Source of the DNA: a virus
Taxonomy: Duplodnaviria > Heunggongvirae > Uroviricota > Caudoviricetes
Reading direction: 5' to 3' (one strand)
Length of the DNA: 47,228 bases
IMG/VR virus record: IMGVR_UViG_647533161_000007
Positions within the stretch are counted from its first letter, which is position 1; each line of letters opens with the position of its first letter. Positions 1 through 26,345 of this stretch are shown here, one piece after another. The notes beneath the pieces are model-generated. The model saw only the letters and a program-made list of their open reading frames with translations, ran no database searches and had not been told where the DNA came from. Made by a program: the position numbers and the translations under genes.

Positions 1-1284
1 TTACAGACTTCTTGAAGGTTGCGCAGCTGTTACAACACGCGGTTGATCTTCCGCGGCATCTTCCAGTGCACTTAAATCACGGTCTCTCACTTCTGGCATT
101 TTCAGCGCAGAGATTAAACCAATCACTGAATATGCCATGATCATAATGGCGATCGGATACCAGGATTCCGTCATGGTGCAGAAAATACCCGCCAGGATAG
201 GACCAAAACCGGAAGCGATAAGACCACCAATTTCTTTAGAAATCGCCATCCGGGTAAAGCGGTTTTTACAGCCGAACATTTCTGCCATGGTAATGTTTTC
301 CAGAGCAAATAATCCCAGCACCGCACAGTTATGAATCACAATCAGTGCAACCATAATGGTGCTCGGGGCATAGCTTTTATCTACGATGATAGAAAGCATT
401 GGCCACGCCAGCACAATCGCAGAGGTATTCATAATAATATACGGGATCCGGCGACCTATTTTATCGGATAACCAACCAAGGAACGGAATGGTCATAAAGC
501 CGAGAATCGAACTGATCATCAATGCATCTGTTGGAATTGCTTTGTTAAACAATAACGTCTGCACTAAATAGCCTGCAAGGAAAGTCTGAATTAAACCGGA
601 GTTACCAGCCTGACCAAAACGCAGCCCTGTTGCCAGCCAGAAGGATTTGCTCTGGAACATGCTACCAGCAGGTGCAGGTTTTGCTGTCGGTTGGTTGCTG
701 TCGTTAACCTTCTCAAAGACCGGGCTTTCTTTCAGATTCATACGCAACCAGATAGCAAAGACCATCACGACAACGCTCGCCAGGAACGGTATACGCCATC
801 CCCACGCAAGCAGTTCCTCTTTACTGAGAATGAAGAACATAAAGGCCCAGATTGCCGTTGCGCTCAAGGTTCCGCAGTTAGTCCCCATAGCAACAAATGA
901 GGAGATAATTCCGCGCTTACCTTTTGGTGCATATTCCGCCAGCATCGTGCCGGCACCGGAAATTTCCGCGCCTGCCCCCAGCCCCTGAATAATACGCAGC
1001 GTCACCAGCAAAATTGGCGCAAACACACCAATTTGTGCATAGGTCGGCAGCACACCAATTAAGGTAGTACAGATCCCCATCATAGTGATGGTAATAAAGA
1101 GCACTTTTTTACGCCCGATTCTGTCGCCCATTTTGCCGAAAATAAATGCTCCGACAATACGCGCCACATAACCTGCACCGTAGGTTCCCATTGCCAGAAT
1201 TAACGCCATTGCCGTTGATGATTCAGGAAAAAATATTTCATGAAACACTAACGCTGCGCCGAGCGAATATAACTGGAAATCCAT
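1..1284 (-). CDS. ydfJ: MFS transporter of the ProP/KgtP metabolite:H+ symporter family, apparently lacking ~30 N-terminal residues (start of TM1)
   Basis: 427-aa ORF with MFS signature GDRIGRKK after the second hydrophobic segment; N-terminus begins inside what is TM1 in KgtP-like proteins; stop codon at window position 1-3. Confidence 0.8.
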   Translation of the reverse strand: MDFQLYSLGAALVFHEIFFPESSTAMALILAMGTYGAGYVARIVGAFIFGKMGDRIGRKKVLFITITMMGICTTLIGVLPTYAQIGVFAPILLVTLRIIQGLGAGAEISGAGTMLAEYAPKGKRGIISSFVAMGTNCGTLSATAIWAFMFFILSKEELLAWGWRIPFLASVVVMVFAIWLRMNLKESPVFEKVNDSNQPTAKPAPAGSMFQSKSFWLATGLRFGQAGNSGLIQTFLAGYLVQTLLFNKAIPTDALMISSILGFMTIPFLGWLSDKIGRRIPYIIMNTSAIVLAWPMLSIIVDKSYAPSTIMVALIVIHNCAVLGLFALENITMAEMFGCKNRFTRMAISKEIGGLIASGFGPILAGIFCTMTESWYPIAIMIMAYSVIGLISALKMPEVRDRDLSALEDAAEDQPRVVTAAQPSRSL

Positions 1285-23295: not shown

Positions 23296-23513
23296 CAGAA
23301 CCTCGCCAGCCGGTACCCGGGATGCCCCCGTCGTCGTGTAATCAGAGCCGCAAGGCGGCGCTCCCACTCCTGCCGTCCCTGCCGGATCTCAGATAAGTTT
23401 TCCATGGTCATCTGCTGACCATTAAAGGTGACGGATTTTCCGTCCAGCACCGCCATTTCAGCTTCCGTATAACGCTGAATCATGGCTTCGATATCATTCT
23501 GGTTCATAACCAT
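23295..23513 (-). CDS. W: Head-tail joining protein gpW-like
   Basis: 72-aa ORF with C-terminal RRRGHPGYRL resembling the lambda gpW C-terminus; lies between terminase A and portal. Confidence 0.6.
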   Translation of the reverse strand: MVMNQNDIEAMIQRYTEAEMAVLDGKSVTFNGQQMTMENLSEIRQGRQEWERRLAALITRRRGHPGYRLARF

Positions 23514-25606
23514 CCTCCGGAAGTCAGCCAGGGGTTAACATCGTCAGTTACTGTTTTCTTCCGTTTTTGTTTTTTAACAGGCGTGGATACCGGTTCCGGT
23601 GTGGGTGACGGTTCGGTACTGTCCGGGACACACTCCAGCCAGGTTTCCCGGCTCGCCCACTCCGGTGCATCCGGCCAGCGGATCTTTTCGTATCCATGCA
23701 GAATGACCAGAGCCTCGGCATACACCATCAGGTCAAAAGCTTCGTTGGCACCGCGACCCGGCTTACTCCATTTCCCGTCACTGCTCCGCTCTTCATACGT
23801 CAGTTCGTCGTAAAACCAGCTCCCCAGCCAGTCAGGGAAATGCACATAGCCGGGACCTGGCGAGTCACGCCATAACGCGTTATTCACCCGGTCTTTCAGG
23901 GCATCCGTCTGAAGAAGCCAGAGCGGCACATCACCTGCGGCCTGCGCCCGGCGGCCCGTTCGTCCGGTGTTATCAGGGAATGTACGGCTGATCAGTTTTG
24001 CGCGCCGGATGCTGTCACCCTTAAACAGGTAAATACGTTTACCAAGGCCATCACGACGGCAACGACGCCAGAATTTATAGGCATTATCAGTGACCCCGTC
24101 TTCACCGCCGGAGTCCACCGCCATTGCCATCAGTCGCATTTGTTGAGAAGGATCGGAGGCCAGCGGCCAGCTTTTATGAAAAACATCCGTCAGCAGGACA
24201 TCCCAGTCTTCCGGATAGCTGGCCGGATCAATTCGCTGGCTCTCCCCGTCGCTGTCACCGCGCAATGACTGCGTGATGTTGTAACGATCAATAATCCAGC
24301 GTTCGCCACGGCTGCCATAGCCCGTTACCTGAACCACAAAACGGCGATGACGTCCCGCCTGCACATCCACTGTCGCCACAAGGAAATTAACGCCATCCGG
24401 CACACTGCGGGAAGGAACTGGCTCTGCCCGCTGCTCAAGCAATTCACTTTTTCGTTGCTCCATGCTGGCGCGGGGAAGATAAGGTAATCCCCAGTCGGTA
24501 TTGATAACCGTCTTGAGTGTCTCTTCACTTCCGGTTGTCTCGTATTCCTGTTCTGCAGTAAGCAGTTTGTAAACGAGTTGCGAGAGTGTCTGATAAGCAG
24601 CTGCCGGACCCTCCATCCAGAATGACGCAATACGTGAACGCCGGGGATCACCATAACGACTGCCATCTGCATTGATGGATTCACCATCCCGTAACCAGAC
24701 CCCACGTCCGTTCAGCTCGCGTTTTTGTTCAGGCAAAATCCGTCCTGAACAGGAAGGACACTGAATATAAGCCGCCTCACTTGCCAGCACAGGATCGGCA
24801 ATATCACGGAAACCAGCAACCACATCGCCGCAGGGCTGAAAATACTCACCACAGTGTGGACAGGGCCAGTACCAGCGACGGCGATCGCCACGGTTATAGA
24901 GCGACAGGATCCCCGTGGTTGGTGGAGCCTCATGCGGTGAAGTCCGTCGCCATTTCACATCCTTCACATCCCTGCCGGGGGAACTCTCCACCAGCGTCAT
25001 ACCACTGGACATAAATGTGGTGGTACGTTTTGAGGCAAGAGAGAAGGCATCCCCCTCACCATCAATATCTTCCGGAAAACGGTCATAATCCGTCAGCGCC
25101 ACGCATTTATAATCTGATGAAGACATGATATTGACTGACGGCCAGCCGATTTTCAGGTAGTTGCCAGCAAGGAATGTTCTGTCATAAACGTTGTTGTCAT
25201 TTTTGTTCGGACTCAGGCGACTGACCACTTCCGGGCTGACGCGAAACGTTCTGGCGAGTCGTTTTTTGGAGTGTTCGCGGGCTTTTTCCTCCGTCATCTG
25301 AATGATCAGCATATCAGCAGGATCGCAAATCACGTTGTAAATCACCCAGCCGTCAATCAGGCCGATAGTCTTGCCGGTTCGTGCCGGGCCAACAAATATC
25401 ACTGCGTCGTATTCACGCGAGGCCAGGCAGTTCATAGGCTCAATAACATACGGTGCCACCAGCGGATCCCACGGGACTGAGTTCCCTGCCCCCATAGGCA
25501 CCCGCATATACTGAGCAACGGCATCAGCAACCCGCATTCGTCTCGGTGCGCGAAGGATATAACCTGAATCGGTTCGTGCTGCCTTTGCGGTTTCCTGATT
25601 CAGCAT
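23504..25606 (-). CDS. A: Terminase large subunit (GpA family)
   Basis: 700-aa ORF with ATPase region (GPARTGKT Walker A) and C-terminal nuclease region; lambda-like position. Confidence 0.9.
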   Translation of the reverse strand: MLNQETAKAARTDSGYILRAPRRMRVADAVAQYMRVPMGAGNSVPWDPLVAPYVIEPMNCLASREYDAVIFVGPARTGKTIGLIDGWVIYNVICDPADMLIIQMTEEKAREHSKKRLARTFRVSPEVVSRLSPNKNDNNVYDRTFLAGNYLKIGWPSVNIMSSSDYKCVALTDYDRFPEDIDGEGDAFSLASKRTTTFMSSGMTLVESSPGRDVKDVKWRRTSPHEAPPTTGILSLYNRGDRRRWYWPCPHCGEYFQPCGDVVAGFRDIADPVLASEAAYIQCPSCSGRILPEQKRELNGRGVWLRDGESINADGSRYGDPRRSRIASFWMEGPAAAYQTLSQLVYKLLTAEQEYETTGSEETLKTVINTDWGLPYLPRASMEQRKSELLEQRAEPVPSRSVPDGVNFLVATVDVQAGRHRRFVVQVTGYGSRGERWIIDRYNITQSLRGDSDGESQRIDPASYPEDWDVLLTDVFHKSWPLASDPSQQMRLMAMAVDSGGEDGVTDNAYKFWRRCRRDGLGKRIYLFKGDSIRRAKLISRTFPDNTGRTGRRAQAAGDVPLWLLQTDALKDRVNNALWRDSPGPGYVHFPDWLGSWFYDELTYEERSSDGKWSKPGRGANEAFDLMVYAEALVILHGYEKIRWPDAPEWASRETWLECVPDSTEPSPTPEPVSTPVKKQKRKKTVTDDVNPWLTSGGWL

Positions 25607-26100
25607 TACTCCTCCTGCTGTAATTCCTCCTCATCATCCGCACCTGCTTCAGTCACCCGCAGGGCTATCTGATCGCGCAGATCATCAATAATGGACTGAA
25701 CACGGCTCACAGCGGCAGGCTGCAGACCGCAGTCACGTTCAAGAATATCCGGTAATGTCTCCAGCACCTGCACGACCGCTTTTGCCCAGATGGCAAACTC
25801 CCGTCTGACATCACTGGCCGGAATGAGTTGTGCCGTTTCCTGTTCGAACTTAAGACGCTCACGTTCAGACTGATACCAGGCTTTGCGCTCATGCGCGTCC
25901 ATTTCGCCTTCTGCAACCGGCGGTGGTAATGCCAGAAATGCCGACACAATATCAACCACCCGATAAAGCTTGAGGTTGCTTTCATGCCCCCCTGCAACGG
26001 GTAGATTTTGCAGCCTTGCCGCAGCAGTCTGGCGATGTACACCTGACAATGCCGCCAGTTGACTGATATTCAGCGTCAGATTTTTTAACTCTCGATCCAT
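25606..26100 (-). CDS. Terminase small subunit (Nu1-like, HTH)
   Basis: 164-aa ORF with N-terminal HTH (ISQLAALSGVHRQTAA), acidic C-terminus; immediately downstream of the cos-like site and upstream of A. Confidence 0.75.
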   Translation of the reverse strand: MDRELKNLTLNISQLAALSGVHRQTAAARLQNLPVAGGHESNLKLYRVVDIVSAFLALPPPVAEGEMDAHERKAWYQSERERLKFEQETAQLIPASDVRREFAIWAKAVVQVLETLPDILERDCGLQPAAVSRVQSIIDDLRDQIALRVTEAGADDEEELQQEE

Positions 26101-26199
26101 ACCCGCTCCAGAATGTTTTAAACATGCATCTTGCGAACAACTTTAGGCAAACGGTGTTAGTGATGAACAAAAAACAATCAGAATCGACACCATAAAAAT

Positions 26200-26345
26200 A
26201 AATCCACTGTAATATCAATCAATTACAGTAGTGGTGATGACGAATAAAATTTCAAAAACTAGCCTTTTTCCGCGACGCTCCCGCCCCGTGGCAGGGGCCC
26301 CCACCGGGAGGACCCGACAGCCTGACAGCCTGACAGCCGTGACGA
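26200..26345. other. cos region: cosB-like IHF site, cosN-like 12-mer, cosQ-position 8-bp triplet repeat
   Basis: Minus-strand acg-GGGCGGGAGCGT-CGCGG (plus 26275..26286) is a 1-mismatch-rich relative of the lambda cohesive end GGGCGGCGACCT; IHF consensus TATCAAtcaaTTA at 26213..26225. Confidence 0.55.
26316..26339. repeat. Tandem 8-bp direct repeat gacagcct x3 beside cosN
   Basis: gacagcct gacagcct gacagccg read directly. Confidence 0.7.

Follow-up and report, generated by a model that had tools for sequence, protein, structure and literature searches.

Positions 26160 to 26315 of the window, the 47,228-nucleotide stretch of DNA analysed here, very probably hold the cos site of a lambdoid prophage of the mEp460 type that is inserted at the Qin locus (ydfJ-rspB), and the site most likely functions as in lambda. 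The carrier is a common, apparently intact Escherichia coli prophage of the mEp460/Tritos type. The site is already known, the identical 12-mer GGGCGGGAGCGT being base 1 onwards in two published phage records, cdtI and Tritos, and its differences from lambda fall where cos sites naturally vary.

The features of the region are listed in Table 1. Base pairs (bp) are numbered from the left end of the 12-mer (bp 1 is position 26286, minus strand) toward the small terminase gene, and conservation was computed per alignment column over 46 distinct relatives.

Table 1. Features of the cos region and the adjoining terminase genes (positions in the window)
Feature	Position	Strand	Remarks
8-bp tandem repeat (GGCTGTCA x2, GGCTGTCG, partial unit)	26316..26343	-	directly upstream of cosQ
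cosQ heptamer GGGTCCT	26309..26315	-	starts 29 bp upstream of the predicted top-strand nick
cosN ACG|GGGCGGGAGCGT|CGCGG	26270..26289	-	lambda match, record ends, conservation
I2-like A/T-rich spacer (AAAAAGGCTAGTTTTTGAAATTTTA)	26245..26269	-	between cosN and cosB
Candidate R3 TCGTCATCACCAC, three overlapping TC(A/G)NCA(C/T) units	26231..26243	-	bp 44-56
Imperfect inverted repeat (ACTGTAAT / ATTACAGT core)	26204..26231	-	encloses the IHF core, T-run after
I1, IHF consensus TATCAATCAATTA	26213..26225	+	bp 62-74, between R3 and R2, strand opposite the packaging direction
Candidate R2 TCGACAC	26184..26190	+	bp 97-103, inverted relative to R3 and R1
Candidate R1 TCATCAC	26160..26166	-	bp 121-127, R3 orientation
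Small terminase subunit gene	25606..26100	-	164 aa, Pfam DUF1441 (PF07278)
Large terminase subunit gene	23504..25606	-	700 aa, gpA family (GpA_ATPase, GpA_nuclease)

The site is laid out as cosQ, cosN, the AT-rich I2 and then a putative cosB in which three motif copies in the orientations +, -, + surround an IHF site. The original prediction of a lambda-type cos is borne out, with cosQ, cosN and cosB ordered and oriented as in lambda, the IHF site before the small-subunit gene and a large terminase of the gpA family. As a gpA-family large subunit accompanies an apparently complete cosQ-cosN-cosB, packaging from cos is favored and a headful mechanism was rejected. Among the 46 relatives, cosQ, cosN positions 1 to 6, both flanks and the specified IHF positions are invariant or nearly so, and free variation is found in the sequence upstream of cosQ and in the NNNN spacer of the IHF site.

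The predicted arrangement ACG-GGGCGGGAGCGT-CGCGG was confirmed on the minus strand, with the 12-mer at 26286..26275. By analogy with lambda, nicks would fall at 26287/26286 on the minus strand and at 26275/26274 on the plus strand, which would give a 5' extension of 12 nt with the sequence 5'-GGGCGGGAGCGT. All 14 specified bases of the flanks and the left half of cosN are identical to lambda. The whole 12-mer matches the lambda sequence GGGCGGCGACCT at 8 of 12 positions, namely at all of positions 1 to 6 and at 10 and 12, the flanks ACG and CGCGG being identical and the differences lying at positions 7, 8, 9 and 11. The window contains a single instance of the pattern ACGGGGCGG-N6-CGCGG, free of mismatches, where 0.22 occurrences are expected at up to 2 mismatches. 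Positions 1 to 6, CCACG and CGCGG do not vary among the 46 relatives, save for one CCACG column with a minor allele. Rotational symmetry covers 8 of 16 bp here and 10 of 16 bp in lambda, the symmetric pairs 2/11 and 6/7 being lost and 4/9 gained.

Published genome ends fit these positions. The linear cdtI and Tritos records open exactly at the equivalent of 26286, the Tritos record closes at the equivalent of 26287 (...CCACG), and the yong2 record opens at bp 13 (CGCGGG...); record starts at bp 1 and bp 13 are consistent with both proposed nicks. Measured 5' extensions reported for the related phage Cr-LKS3 (PMC9303873) lend indirect support. We found no physical end mapping for the exact 12-mer GGGCGGGAGCGT in the literature looked at, and a literature search with the 12-mer string matched only unrelated eukaryotic papers. 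The Tritos paper gives no account of how the record ends were fixed, the phi458 paper contains no end mapping, and the ends of LLS and mEp213 are explicitly described as inferred (PMC12315714). None of the sampled IMG/VR contigs begins at the 12-mer, which is uninformative rather than negative, because these contigs are mostly prophages from isolate genomes.

The cosQ heptamer is identical to lambda 48473-48479 at 7 of 7 positions and lies at -29, 1 bp closer to cosN than in lambda (30 bp); by analogy, it may act as the packaging-termination signal. All 7 columns are invariant among the 46 relatives, with a sharp boundary, and GGGTCCT stands at -29 in 115 of the 122 IMG/VR sites carrying the 12-mer. 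The combination GGGTCCT-N19-ACGGGGCGG was found once in the window against an expectation of 0.02. The heptamer, which abuts the 8-bp repeat, had been overlooked in the original prediction. The repeat itself, reported there as a triplet on the cosQ side, does exist as three GGCTGTC(A/G) units at 26339..26316, but it is not a cosQ-side element. Tandem Repeats Finder detected the array (26316-26343, period 8, 3.4 copies), which a direct-repeat search had missed. None of its 24 columns is invariant among the 46 relatives, versus 7 of 7 in the adjoining GGGTCCT; the repeat is missing from cdtI and phi458, and mEp460 has about two degenerate copies. It is a variable neighbor and no conserved cos element.

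On the other side of cosN, the I2-like spacer is identical to lambda GCTATTTATGAAAATTTT at 14 of 18 positions, and 23 of its 25 columns are invariant among the 46 relatives. The first ~17 bases of I2 are common to Tritos and cdtI, after which their cosB diverges, and GGC.AGTTTTT is also present in LLS, yong2, Fels-1 and the cyanophage Cr-LKS3. The predicted IHF-consensus match TATCAATCAATTA proved to be a perfect instance of WATCAANNNNTTR on the plus strand at 26213-26225. The consensus occurs once in the whole 47-kb window (2.66 expected), and this one occurrence falls inside the 175-bp interval from cosN to the gene (~0.01 by position). Eight of the nine specified IHF positions are invariant among the 46 relatives, and variation is concentrated in the NNNN spacer, at 11 minor alleles on average. 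An equivalent site on the same strand was found at bp 61-64 in Tritos (9/9) and in LLS, VT1-Sakai and Fels-1 (8/9 each), and the best IHF match of lambda lies on the same strand at bp 79.

The whole interval of bp 1-186 is well conserved in the window subtype, so conservation alone cannot part R sites from spacers, and a cross-lineage motif scan was needed. The candidate motif TC(A/G)NCA(C/T), derived post hoc, forms a same-strand cluster (bp 42-56) in the window and mEp460, LLS, yong2, VT1-Sakai, Fels-1 and Gifsy-2. We infer that this cluster, the candidate R3, is the small-subunit binding site that would place the large subunit on cosN. The candidate R2 is the sole minus-orientation match in the interval and recurs at bp 96-100 in 6/6 DUF1441 lineages examined, and the candidate R1 recurs at bp 119-123 in 6/6. 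Across six diverged DUF1441 lineages the candidate R3-I1-R2-R1 geometry thus keeps its coordinates, and it mirrors the published layout of lambda, 21 and Gifsy-1 (PMC9026076). The motif is absent from Tritos-type cosB. The "Nu1 sites" that had been proposed for cosB need a different name, as the small subunit is a DUF1441 protein and at best a remote relative of Nu1.

An ATG open reading frame does begin at 26100, where the start of Nu1 had been placed (186 bp from the left end), but its product belongs to DUF1441 and matches lambda Nu1 only with a BLASTP E value of 20. DUF1441 (PF07278) is the sole Pfam match (E = 2.7e-41); membership of the Nu1 family was detected neither by Pfam nor by BLASTP against lambda Nu1. 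Comparison with the Nu1 profile by hhalign gives P = 6.5e-4 and a probability of 27.5%, and the AlphaFold model has an N-terminal beta-alpha-alpha-beta-alpha unit. A PDB sequence search returned zero matches for both terminase subunits. The large subunit matches GpA_ATPase (PF05876, 1.6e-71) and GpA_nuclease (PF20454, 1.1e-85), shares 25% identity with lambda A by BLASTP (E = 3e-19) and is 87% identical to that of Tritos, with a near-identical C-terminal half. It would be the enzyme that nicks cosN. A gene near the terminase is annotated by PGAP as [quoted passage not shown], and Gifsy-2 has the same module type, with a DUF1441 small subunit, a gpA-type large subunit and a ClpP-protease/capsid fusion.

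The closest relatives of the whole arrangement are mEp460, mEp460_4F5, mEp460_ev081, Ayreon, phi458 and vB_EcoS-569R4, which have the cosB and the R3-I1-R2-R1 candidates of the window. The small subunit is 99-100% identical to those of these mEp460-type phages (Ayreon, phi458 and mEp460 among them), and in mEp460 position 12 of the 12-mer is G (GGGCGGGAGCGG). Tritos (OV696610, prophage 3 of E. coli LF82) and cdtI (AB285204) share with the window the identical 12-mer and flanks, GGGTCCT at -29 and terminase subunits of the DUF1441 (small) and gpA (large) types, and upstream of cosN the Tritos sequence, including the 8-bp repeat, agrees with the window at 99.8% identity. Their cosB is unrelated from about bp 35, with a perfect IHF site at bp 64-76 and without TC(A/G)NCA(C/T), and their small subunit is 42% identical to that of the window. 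With cdtI and Tritos, this cosQ-cosN probably serves a second packaging specificity, like the lambda/21 pair. It is possible, although we hold it with some doubt, that the DUF1441 subunits are remote Nu1 homologues that read their own R3-I1-R2-R1 via TC(A/G)NCA(C/T), the window and Tritos types forming a lambda/21-like pair. If so, window-type and Tritos-type systems share cosQ, cosN and the proximal I2 and differ in cosB and small-subunit specificity, and satellites, for example on IMG/VR contig L011, may exploit the pair through several cos units with different cosB types.

Lambda resembles the window in the order, orientation and approximate spacing of all subsites and in having a same-strand IHF site between repeats one and two. 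The start of the small-subunit gene falls at bp 187 in the window and at bp 191 in lambda, and R3 lies at bp 50-65 in lambda, the candidate of the window being at bp 44-56; the R sequences are unrelated, and the small subunit of lambda is Nu1 rather than DUF1441. Feiss et al. (PMC4669245) count the Salmonella phage Gifsy-1 among the lambda-like phages with cohesive ends. Its 12-mer GGGCGGCAGCGT is preceded by ACG, with GGGTCCT upstream, whereas its terminase is a true Nu1/gpA (phage 21-like) enzyme, its head genes are of the lambda type, its right flank is CGCAGG and its R sequences are of the lambda/21 type. The phages mEp213, mEp043 and LLS, with the cos sequence GGGCGGCGCGCT (annotated as a 5'-extended cohesive site in PQ299149), have the same terminase lineage and flanks and a DUF1441 small subunit 57-58% identical to that of the window. 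In mEp043 cosQ lies at -29, and LLS has the R3/R2/R1 geometry of the window. Their differences from the window are the right half of the 12-mer, an R3 formed by a CATCATCATCAT run, an IHF match of 8/9 and a shorter interval between cosN and the gene (129 bp).

These comparisons bear on the claim that the 12-mer is divergent and implies an altered nicking specificity of the terminase. The sequence is the second commonest lambda-like cosN in the IMG/VR sample and differs from Gifsy-1 at position 7 alone, and relative to lambda all changes are confined to positions 7-12, with positions 1-6 and the nick-flanking CG pairs unchanged. Feiss et al. (2015) describe natural variation within cosN's right half as common, with no measurable effect on cos cleavage, and report lambda and N15-hybrid terminases without cosN specificity (PMC4669245). 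Since right-half changes have no measurable effect and Gifsy-1 differs only at position 7, altered nicking does not follow from the substitutions, and we regard it as unlikely that lambda-type enzymes would fail to cut this cosN, or the reciprocal. The low identity of the large subunit to lambda A and the partly moved symmetric base pairs would fit such a change, as would an association in the IMG/VR sample: the 12-mer GGGCGGGAGCGT is followed by a DUF1441 small subunit in 104 of the 107 sites with a callable ORF and never by the Nu1 type, and the lambda 12-mer never occurs with the DUF1441 type. Linkage, however, explains this lineage association equally well, and DUF1441-type small subunits adjoin 11 different cosN right halves in the same sample, which speaks against a tight reading of the sequence, while Gifsy-1 combines nearly the same right half with a true Nu1/gpA terminase. 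Packaging specificity is expected to reside in cosB and the small subunit rather than in the 12-mer. A related alternative is a real cos in which one nick is displaced, giving an overhang shorter or longer than 12 nt. Overhang length does vary within the DUF1441-type terminase lineage: Cr-LKS3, whose small subunit is 40% identical to that of the window (tblastn, E = 2e-15), is reported to have 5' extensions of 9 nt starting GGGC with the same CG flanks (PMC9303873), and 11, 10 and 14 bases separate the conserved flanks, ACG and CGCGG, in VT1-Sakai, CP-1639 and Gifsy-2, respectively. In these relatives, however, the flank distance shifts with the inferred overhang, so the nicks appear to track the conserved flanks, which here, as in lambda, Gifsy-1, Fels-1 and LLS, enclose exactly 12 bp. 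Together with the record starts of yong2 and cdtI/Tritos, which fit both nicks, this makes a displaced nick improbable.

Two further readings were weighed. The conserved block between cosN and the gene could mainly serve transcription, as a terminator-like hairpin or the leader of the late operon, instead of binding terminase and IHF, and the inverted repeat with its T-run does overlap the IHF core, with two weak promoter-like matches within the interval. The repeat pair is 8 nt long and 100% complementary, yet the terminator-like stem has 10 pairs with just 3 G-C, its outer positions vary among the 46 relatives, and inspection of the variants by eye gave no clear pattern of compensatory changes. 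Terminator-like sites are about as frequent as in shuffled sequences (1 versus 0.8), and lineages without the hairpin still have the IHF site on the same strand and the motif copies in +, -, + geometry. A mainly transcriptional block is accordingly most improbable, and both roles can in any case coexist. The prophage could also be an intact-looking relic, defective and with a cos copy that is never used. The Qin locus holds a cryptic prophage in K-12, and the present element is inserted at this locus with Qin-type accessory genes. Against this, no part of the gene set seems to be missing (int, xis, cI/cro, replication, Q, lysis, head and tail), and full-length ORFs encode terminase, portal and capsid. 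Over 6.5 kb, the cos-terminase-portal-capsid module is 98.7-99.0% identical to the isolated phages phi458, vB_EcoS-569R4, mEp460, mEp460_4F5 and Ayreon (98.8-99% for plaque-forming phages; phi458 and Tritos form plaques). A relic is therefore quite unlikely, and should the prophage be defective after all, its cos could still be used by a helper of matching cosB specificity.

A working lambda-like cos, the reading we prefer, suggests the following packaging route, modeled on lambda. During late growth the DUF1441 small subunit would bind the three TC(A/G)NCA(C/T) sites (R3, inverted R2 and R1), with IHF bending the DNA between R3 and R2, and this would hold the large subunit, of the gpA family, in place over cosN. 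The enzyme would then nick the packaging strand after ...CCACG and the opposite strand before CGCGG, producing the 12-nt 5' extension. Packaging would run leftward in window coordinates, taking in the terminase and then the head genes, until cosQ and cosN of the next cos on the concatemer trigger the terminating cut.

For annotation, the site would fix the genome ends, the packaging direction and the mode of packaging (by cos and not headful) for a prophage type with matches in more than one-third of complete E. coli genomes, the cos region being matched, in part, in 2,081 of 5,426. It adds little new biology. For lambda-like phages it is already on record that the right half of cosN varies and that cosQ and the left half are conserved. 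The added value is modest and lies in a coordinate-level map of candidate small-subunit sites in the DUF1441 lineage and in one cosQ-cosN common to two probable cosB/small-subunit specificities. Both could be of use in experiments on packaging specificity and in designing cosmid-based or transduction tools for this group of phages. The mEp460/Tritos-type family also includes relatives with cdt and stx genes.

The window site is a genuine, well-formed lambda-type cos with the cosQ, cosN, and cosB layout, as the original prediction proposed, and both the cosN-like 12-mer between ACG and CGCGG and the perfect IHF-consensus match that it named are present. It belongs to an mEp460-type prophage. 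The cos-element matches are more than chance would give. The window has a single mismatch-free copy of the lambda cosN frame ACGGGGCGG-N6-CGCGG, against 0.22 matches expected even with up to two mismatches, and GGGTCCT-N19-ACGGGGCGG is found once against 0.02 expected. Of the IHF consensus, 2.66 copies would be expected over the 47-kb window; the single copy present falls within the 175 bp that separate cosN from the small-subunit gene, where the cosB motif TC(A/G)NCA(C/T) is confined to the three places listed in the table. We take the GGGTCCT heptamer to be cosQ, an identification with which both its position and its conservation agree.

Features of the cos region and terminase genes, with invariant columns among 46 distinct collinear relatives from IMG/VR (window coordinates unless marked bp; bp 1 is window 26286, and the window coordinate is 26287 - n)
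Feature	Position	Strand	Sequence or match	Invariant columns
8-bp repeat	26339..26316		GGCTGTCA-GGCTGTCA-GGCTGTCG	0/24
cosQ heptamer	26309-26315		GGGTCCT, starts at -29 (lambda: -30)	7/7
CCACG flank				4/5
cosN 12-mer	26286..26275	minus	ACG-GGGCGGGAGCGT-CGCGG	
cosN positions 1-6				6/6
CGCGG flank				5/5
I2				23/25
IHF site	26213-26225	plus	TATCAATCAATTA, perfect WATCAANNNNTTR	8/9 (specified positions)
IHF NNNN spacer			mean 11 minor alleles	1/4
cosB motif, candidate R sites	bp 44-56 (+), 97-103 (-), 121-127 (+)		TC(A/G)NCA(C/T)	
Small terminase subunit ORF	25606-26100		164 aa, Pfam DUF1441, E = 2.7e-41	
Large terminase subunit ORF	23504-25606		700 aa, gpA ATPase 1.6e-71, gpA nuclease 1.1e-85	

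To the left of the nick stands GGGTCCTTTCCGGTG...TTACG in lambda and GGGTCCTCCCGGTG...CCACG in the window, with the window heptamer 1 bp nearer to cosN than that of lambda (48473-48479); the 7-bp cosQ is highly conserved in lambda-like phages (Feiss et al., PMC4669245). The I2 cores of window and lambda are identical at 14 of 18 positions. Of 16 bp in cosN, 8 are rotationally symmetric in the window and 10 in both lambda and Gifsy-1. The +,-,+ arrangement of the cosB motif is also found at bp 42-56, 96-100, and 119-123 in phi458/mEp460, LLS, yong2, VT1-Sakai, Fels-1, and Gifsy-2. The window, Tritos, LLS, VT1-Sakai, and Fels-1 have their best IHF-like site between motif copies 1 and 2, at bp 61-64 on the strand opposing the packaging direction. 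Lambda has its best match on that strand too, at bp 79; the exception is Gifsy-2, whose best match falls on the opposite strand (bp 76). Judged by its motifs, the window cosB would have the published R3-I1-R2-R1 layout (I1 being the IHF site), which is known for lambda, 21, phi80, and Gifsy-1 (PMC9026076); lambda R3 is at bp 50-65. A terminator-like hairpin (26204-26231, minus strand; 10 pairs, 3 of them G-C, 8-nt loop, then ATTTATTTTT) surrounds the IHF core and is oriented with late transcription.

All sequence upstream of cosQ is highly variable among the 46 relatives. The predicted 8-bp triplet repeat is there (26316-26343, period 8, 3.4 copies by Tandem Repeats Finder), but it fails as a cosQ-side element, having no invariant column. 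Tritos also has 3.4 copies of GGCTGTCA, mEp460 and Ayreon have about two degenerate ones, and cdtI and phi458 have none, and we rejected the repeat as a cos subsite in favor of a variable neighbor. The copy-number differences are typical of slippage, with no function evident.

Compared with lambda, the 12-mer has substitutions at positions 7, 8, 9, and 11; compared with Gifsy-1 (GGGCGGCAGCGT), it has only one, at position 7. Such substitutions had been predicted to imply altered nicking specificity, which does not follow, as changes confined to positions 7-12 match documented cosN variation: lambda-like phages commonly differ there, N15 at 9 and 12 and Gifsy-1 at 8, 9, and 11, right-half changes had no measurable effect on cos cleavage, lambda and N15-hybrid terminases showed no cosN specificity, and selection acts on the CG pairs beside the nicks, on the left half, and on cosQ (Feiss et al. 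2015, PMC4669245). The window fits this pattern exactly. Its terminase may still differ from that of lambda in nicking preference, the large subunit being only 25% identical to lambda A, but the window sequence itself implies no such change. Position 11 is not wholly neutral in lambda cosN, where C11G is mild on its own and severe together with G2C.

An ATG ORF does start at 26100, as predicted, but its Nu1 label does not stand: by sequence, the DUF1441 small subunit falls outside the Nu1 family, and BLASTP finds no similarity between it and lambda Nu1 (E = 20). In its AlphaFold model (pLDDT 79), long helices come after an N-terminal beta-alpha-alpha-beta-alpha unit. Foldseek gives no significant match; its top-ranking entries are MerR-type winged-HTH proteins and 6HN7/6HLK, whose titles concern E. 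coli pathogenicity islands redirecting helper-phage packaging. The gpNu1 DNA-binding domain is reported as a MerR-type wHTH. When the subunit's profile is compared with one built from nine Nu1 sequences, the two are collinear over 127 columns (P = 6.5e-4, probability 27.5%), which is suggestive of remote homology between the DUF1441 subunit and Nu1.

In two IMG/VR scans, GGGCGGGAGCGT stands upstream of a DUF1441 small subunit at 104 of the 107 sites with callable ORFs (69 window-type, 35 Tritos-type) and never next to a Nu1-type subunit, and the lambda 12-mer precedes the Nu1 type at 39 of 42 sites. Beside DUF1441 subunits, the right half takes 11 different forms. With positions 7-12 left free, the lambda 12-mer ranks first (51 sites) and that of the window second, in about 11 of 120 loci. 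Tritos and cdtI agree with the window in cosQ, in cosN, and over the first ~17 bp of I2; beyond this, their cosB is unrelated and contains a perfect IHF site of its own (bp 64-76). The small subunit of these two phages is 42% identical to that of the window, and the Tritos large subunit is 87% identical, with almost complete identity in its nuclease half. By analogy, this would be the lambda/21 situation, in which cutting and termination signals are common and initiation specificity differs.

One IMG/VR locus (L011, 1-11983, IMGVR_UViG_2574179916_000005) carries three cosQ-cosN units in one orientation with three different cosB types. The window-type first unit precedes its own small subunit and a large subunit cut off after the ATPase domain, followed by satellite-like genes (integrase with Arm DNA-binding domain, Bro-N, AAA_25, SSB). 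The Tritos-type second lies directly behind a terminator-like hairpin and precedes a ClpP-protease/capsid fusion, and the third precedes a 180-aa DUF1441 subunit. This locus may be a capsid-forming satellite inserted into a terminase gene.

Tritos, the plaque-forming prophage 3 of LF82 (PMC9928086), is 99.8% identical to the window upstream of cosN. Its linear record begins with GGGCGGGAGCGTCGCGG and ends with ...CCTGCCACG; the cdtI record (AB285204) has the same first base and ends with ...GGGTCCTTCCGGTGGGGTGGCCTGCCACG. The Tritos paper (PMC9928086) is silent on whether the ends were measured. The LLS record is annotated with a "5'extended single-strand cohesive site GGGCGGCGCGCT", which was inferred from the putative mEp213 cos (PMC12315714). 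The sole experimental datum within the terminase lineage is cyanophage Cr-LKS3, whose small subunit matches that of the window (tblastn, 40% identity, E = 2e-15) and whose 9-nt 5' extensions, GGGCTCGCG, have the lambda CG flanks (PMC9303873); its left end runs on as CGCGGAAGTCGGCAGTTTTT, as in the window. Since the distance from ACG to CGCGG is 11 nt in VT1-Sakai (L247, ~330-350), 10 nt in CP-1639 (L248, ~330-345), and 14 nt in Gifsy-2 (L133, ~500-520), next to the 9-nt Cr-LKS3 ends (PMC9303873), these spacings suggest that overhang length varies within the DUF1441/gpA lineage with the flanks fixed.

The virion-derived Ayreon assembly (L245, ~165-330; MF807953, 44238-44708) is scrambled exactly at cosN, reading CCACGGGG, then ~150 nt including a small-subunit gene fragment, and resuming at GGAAAAAGGCTAG, which resembles an artefact of assembly at physical ends; the ORF spanning this part is annotated as "putative late gene regulator". 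The mEp460_4F5 record (L003, 1-30; LR595868.1) begins 5 nt ahead of the 12-mer, with CCACG, and lacks 3 nt where 12-mer and flank meet (GGGCGGGAGCG-CGG), a second sequenced-phage-stock anomaly exactly at cosN.

The site is already known, being in public phage records and inside documented cosN variation. Of 5,426 complete E. coli genomes, 2,081 give a match to a 301-bp query across the cos region (at least 80% coverage in 1,187), and the 6.5-kb cos-to-capsid module is 98.8-99.0% identical to the isolated phages phi458, which is plaque-forming, mEp460, mEp460_4F5, and Ayreon. The terminase is followed by a portal of the lambda family and by a fusion of ClpP protease and major capsid protein, which makes this a head module of the Gifsy-2 type (PMC12315714). 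In a PGAP-annotated genome that is 100% identical over the query and imperfectly collinear with the window outside it (e.g., an extra IS200 element), the prophage lies between ydfJ and rspB, the Qin locus, and seems to have a full gene set (int, xis, exonuclease, cI/cro, replication, Q, lysis, terminase, head, tail, and tail fibres). The window (1-47228) holds a seemingly complete lambdoid prophage of the Qin locus, which carries the Qin-type accessory genes hokD, rem, cspB/F/I, gnsB, ynfN, dicB, and pinQ beside this head module and looks like an intact version of the cryptic Qin prophage of K-12.
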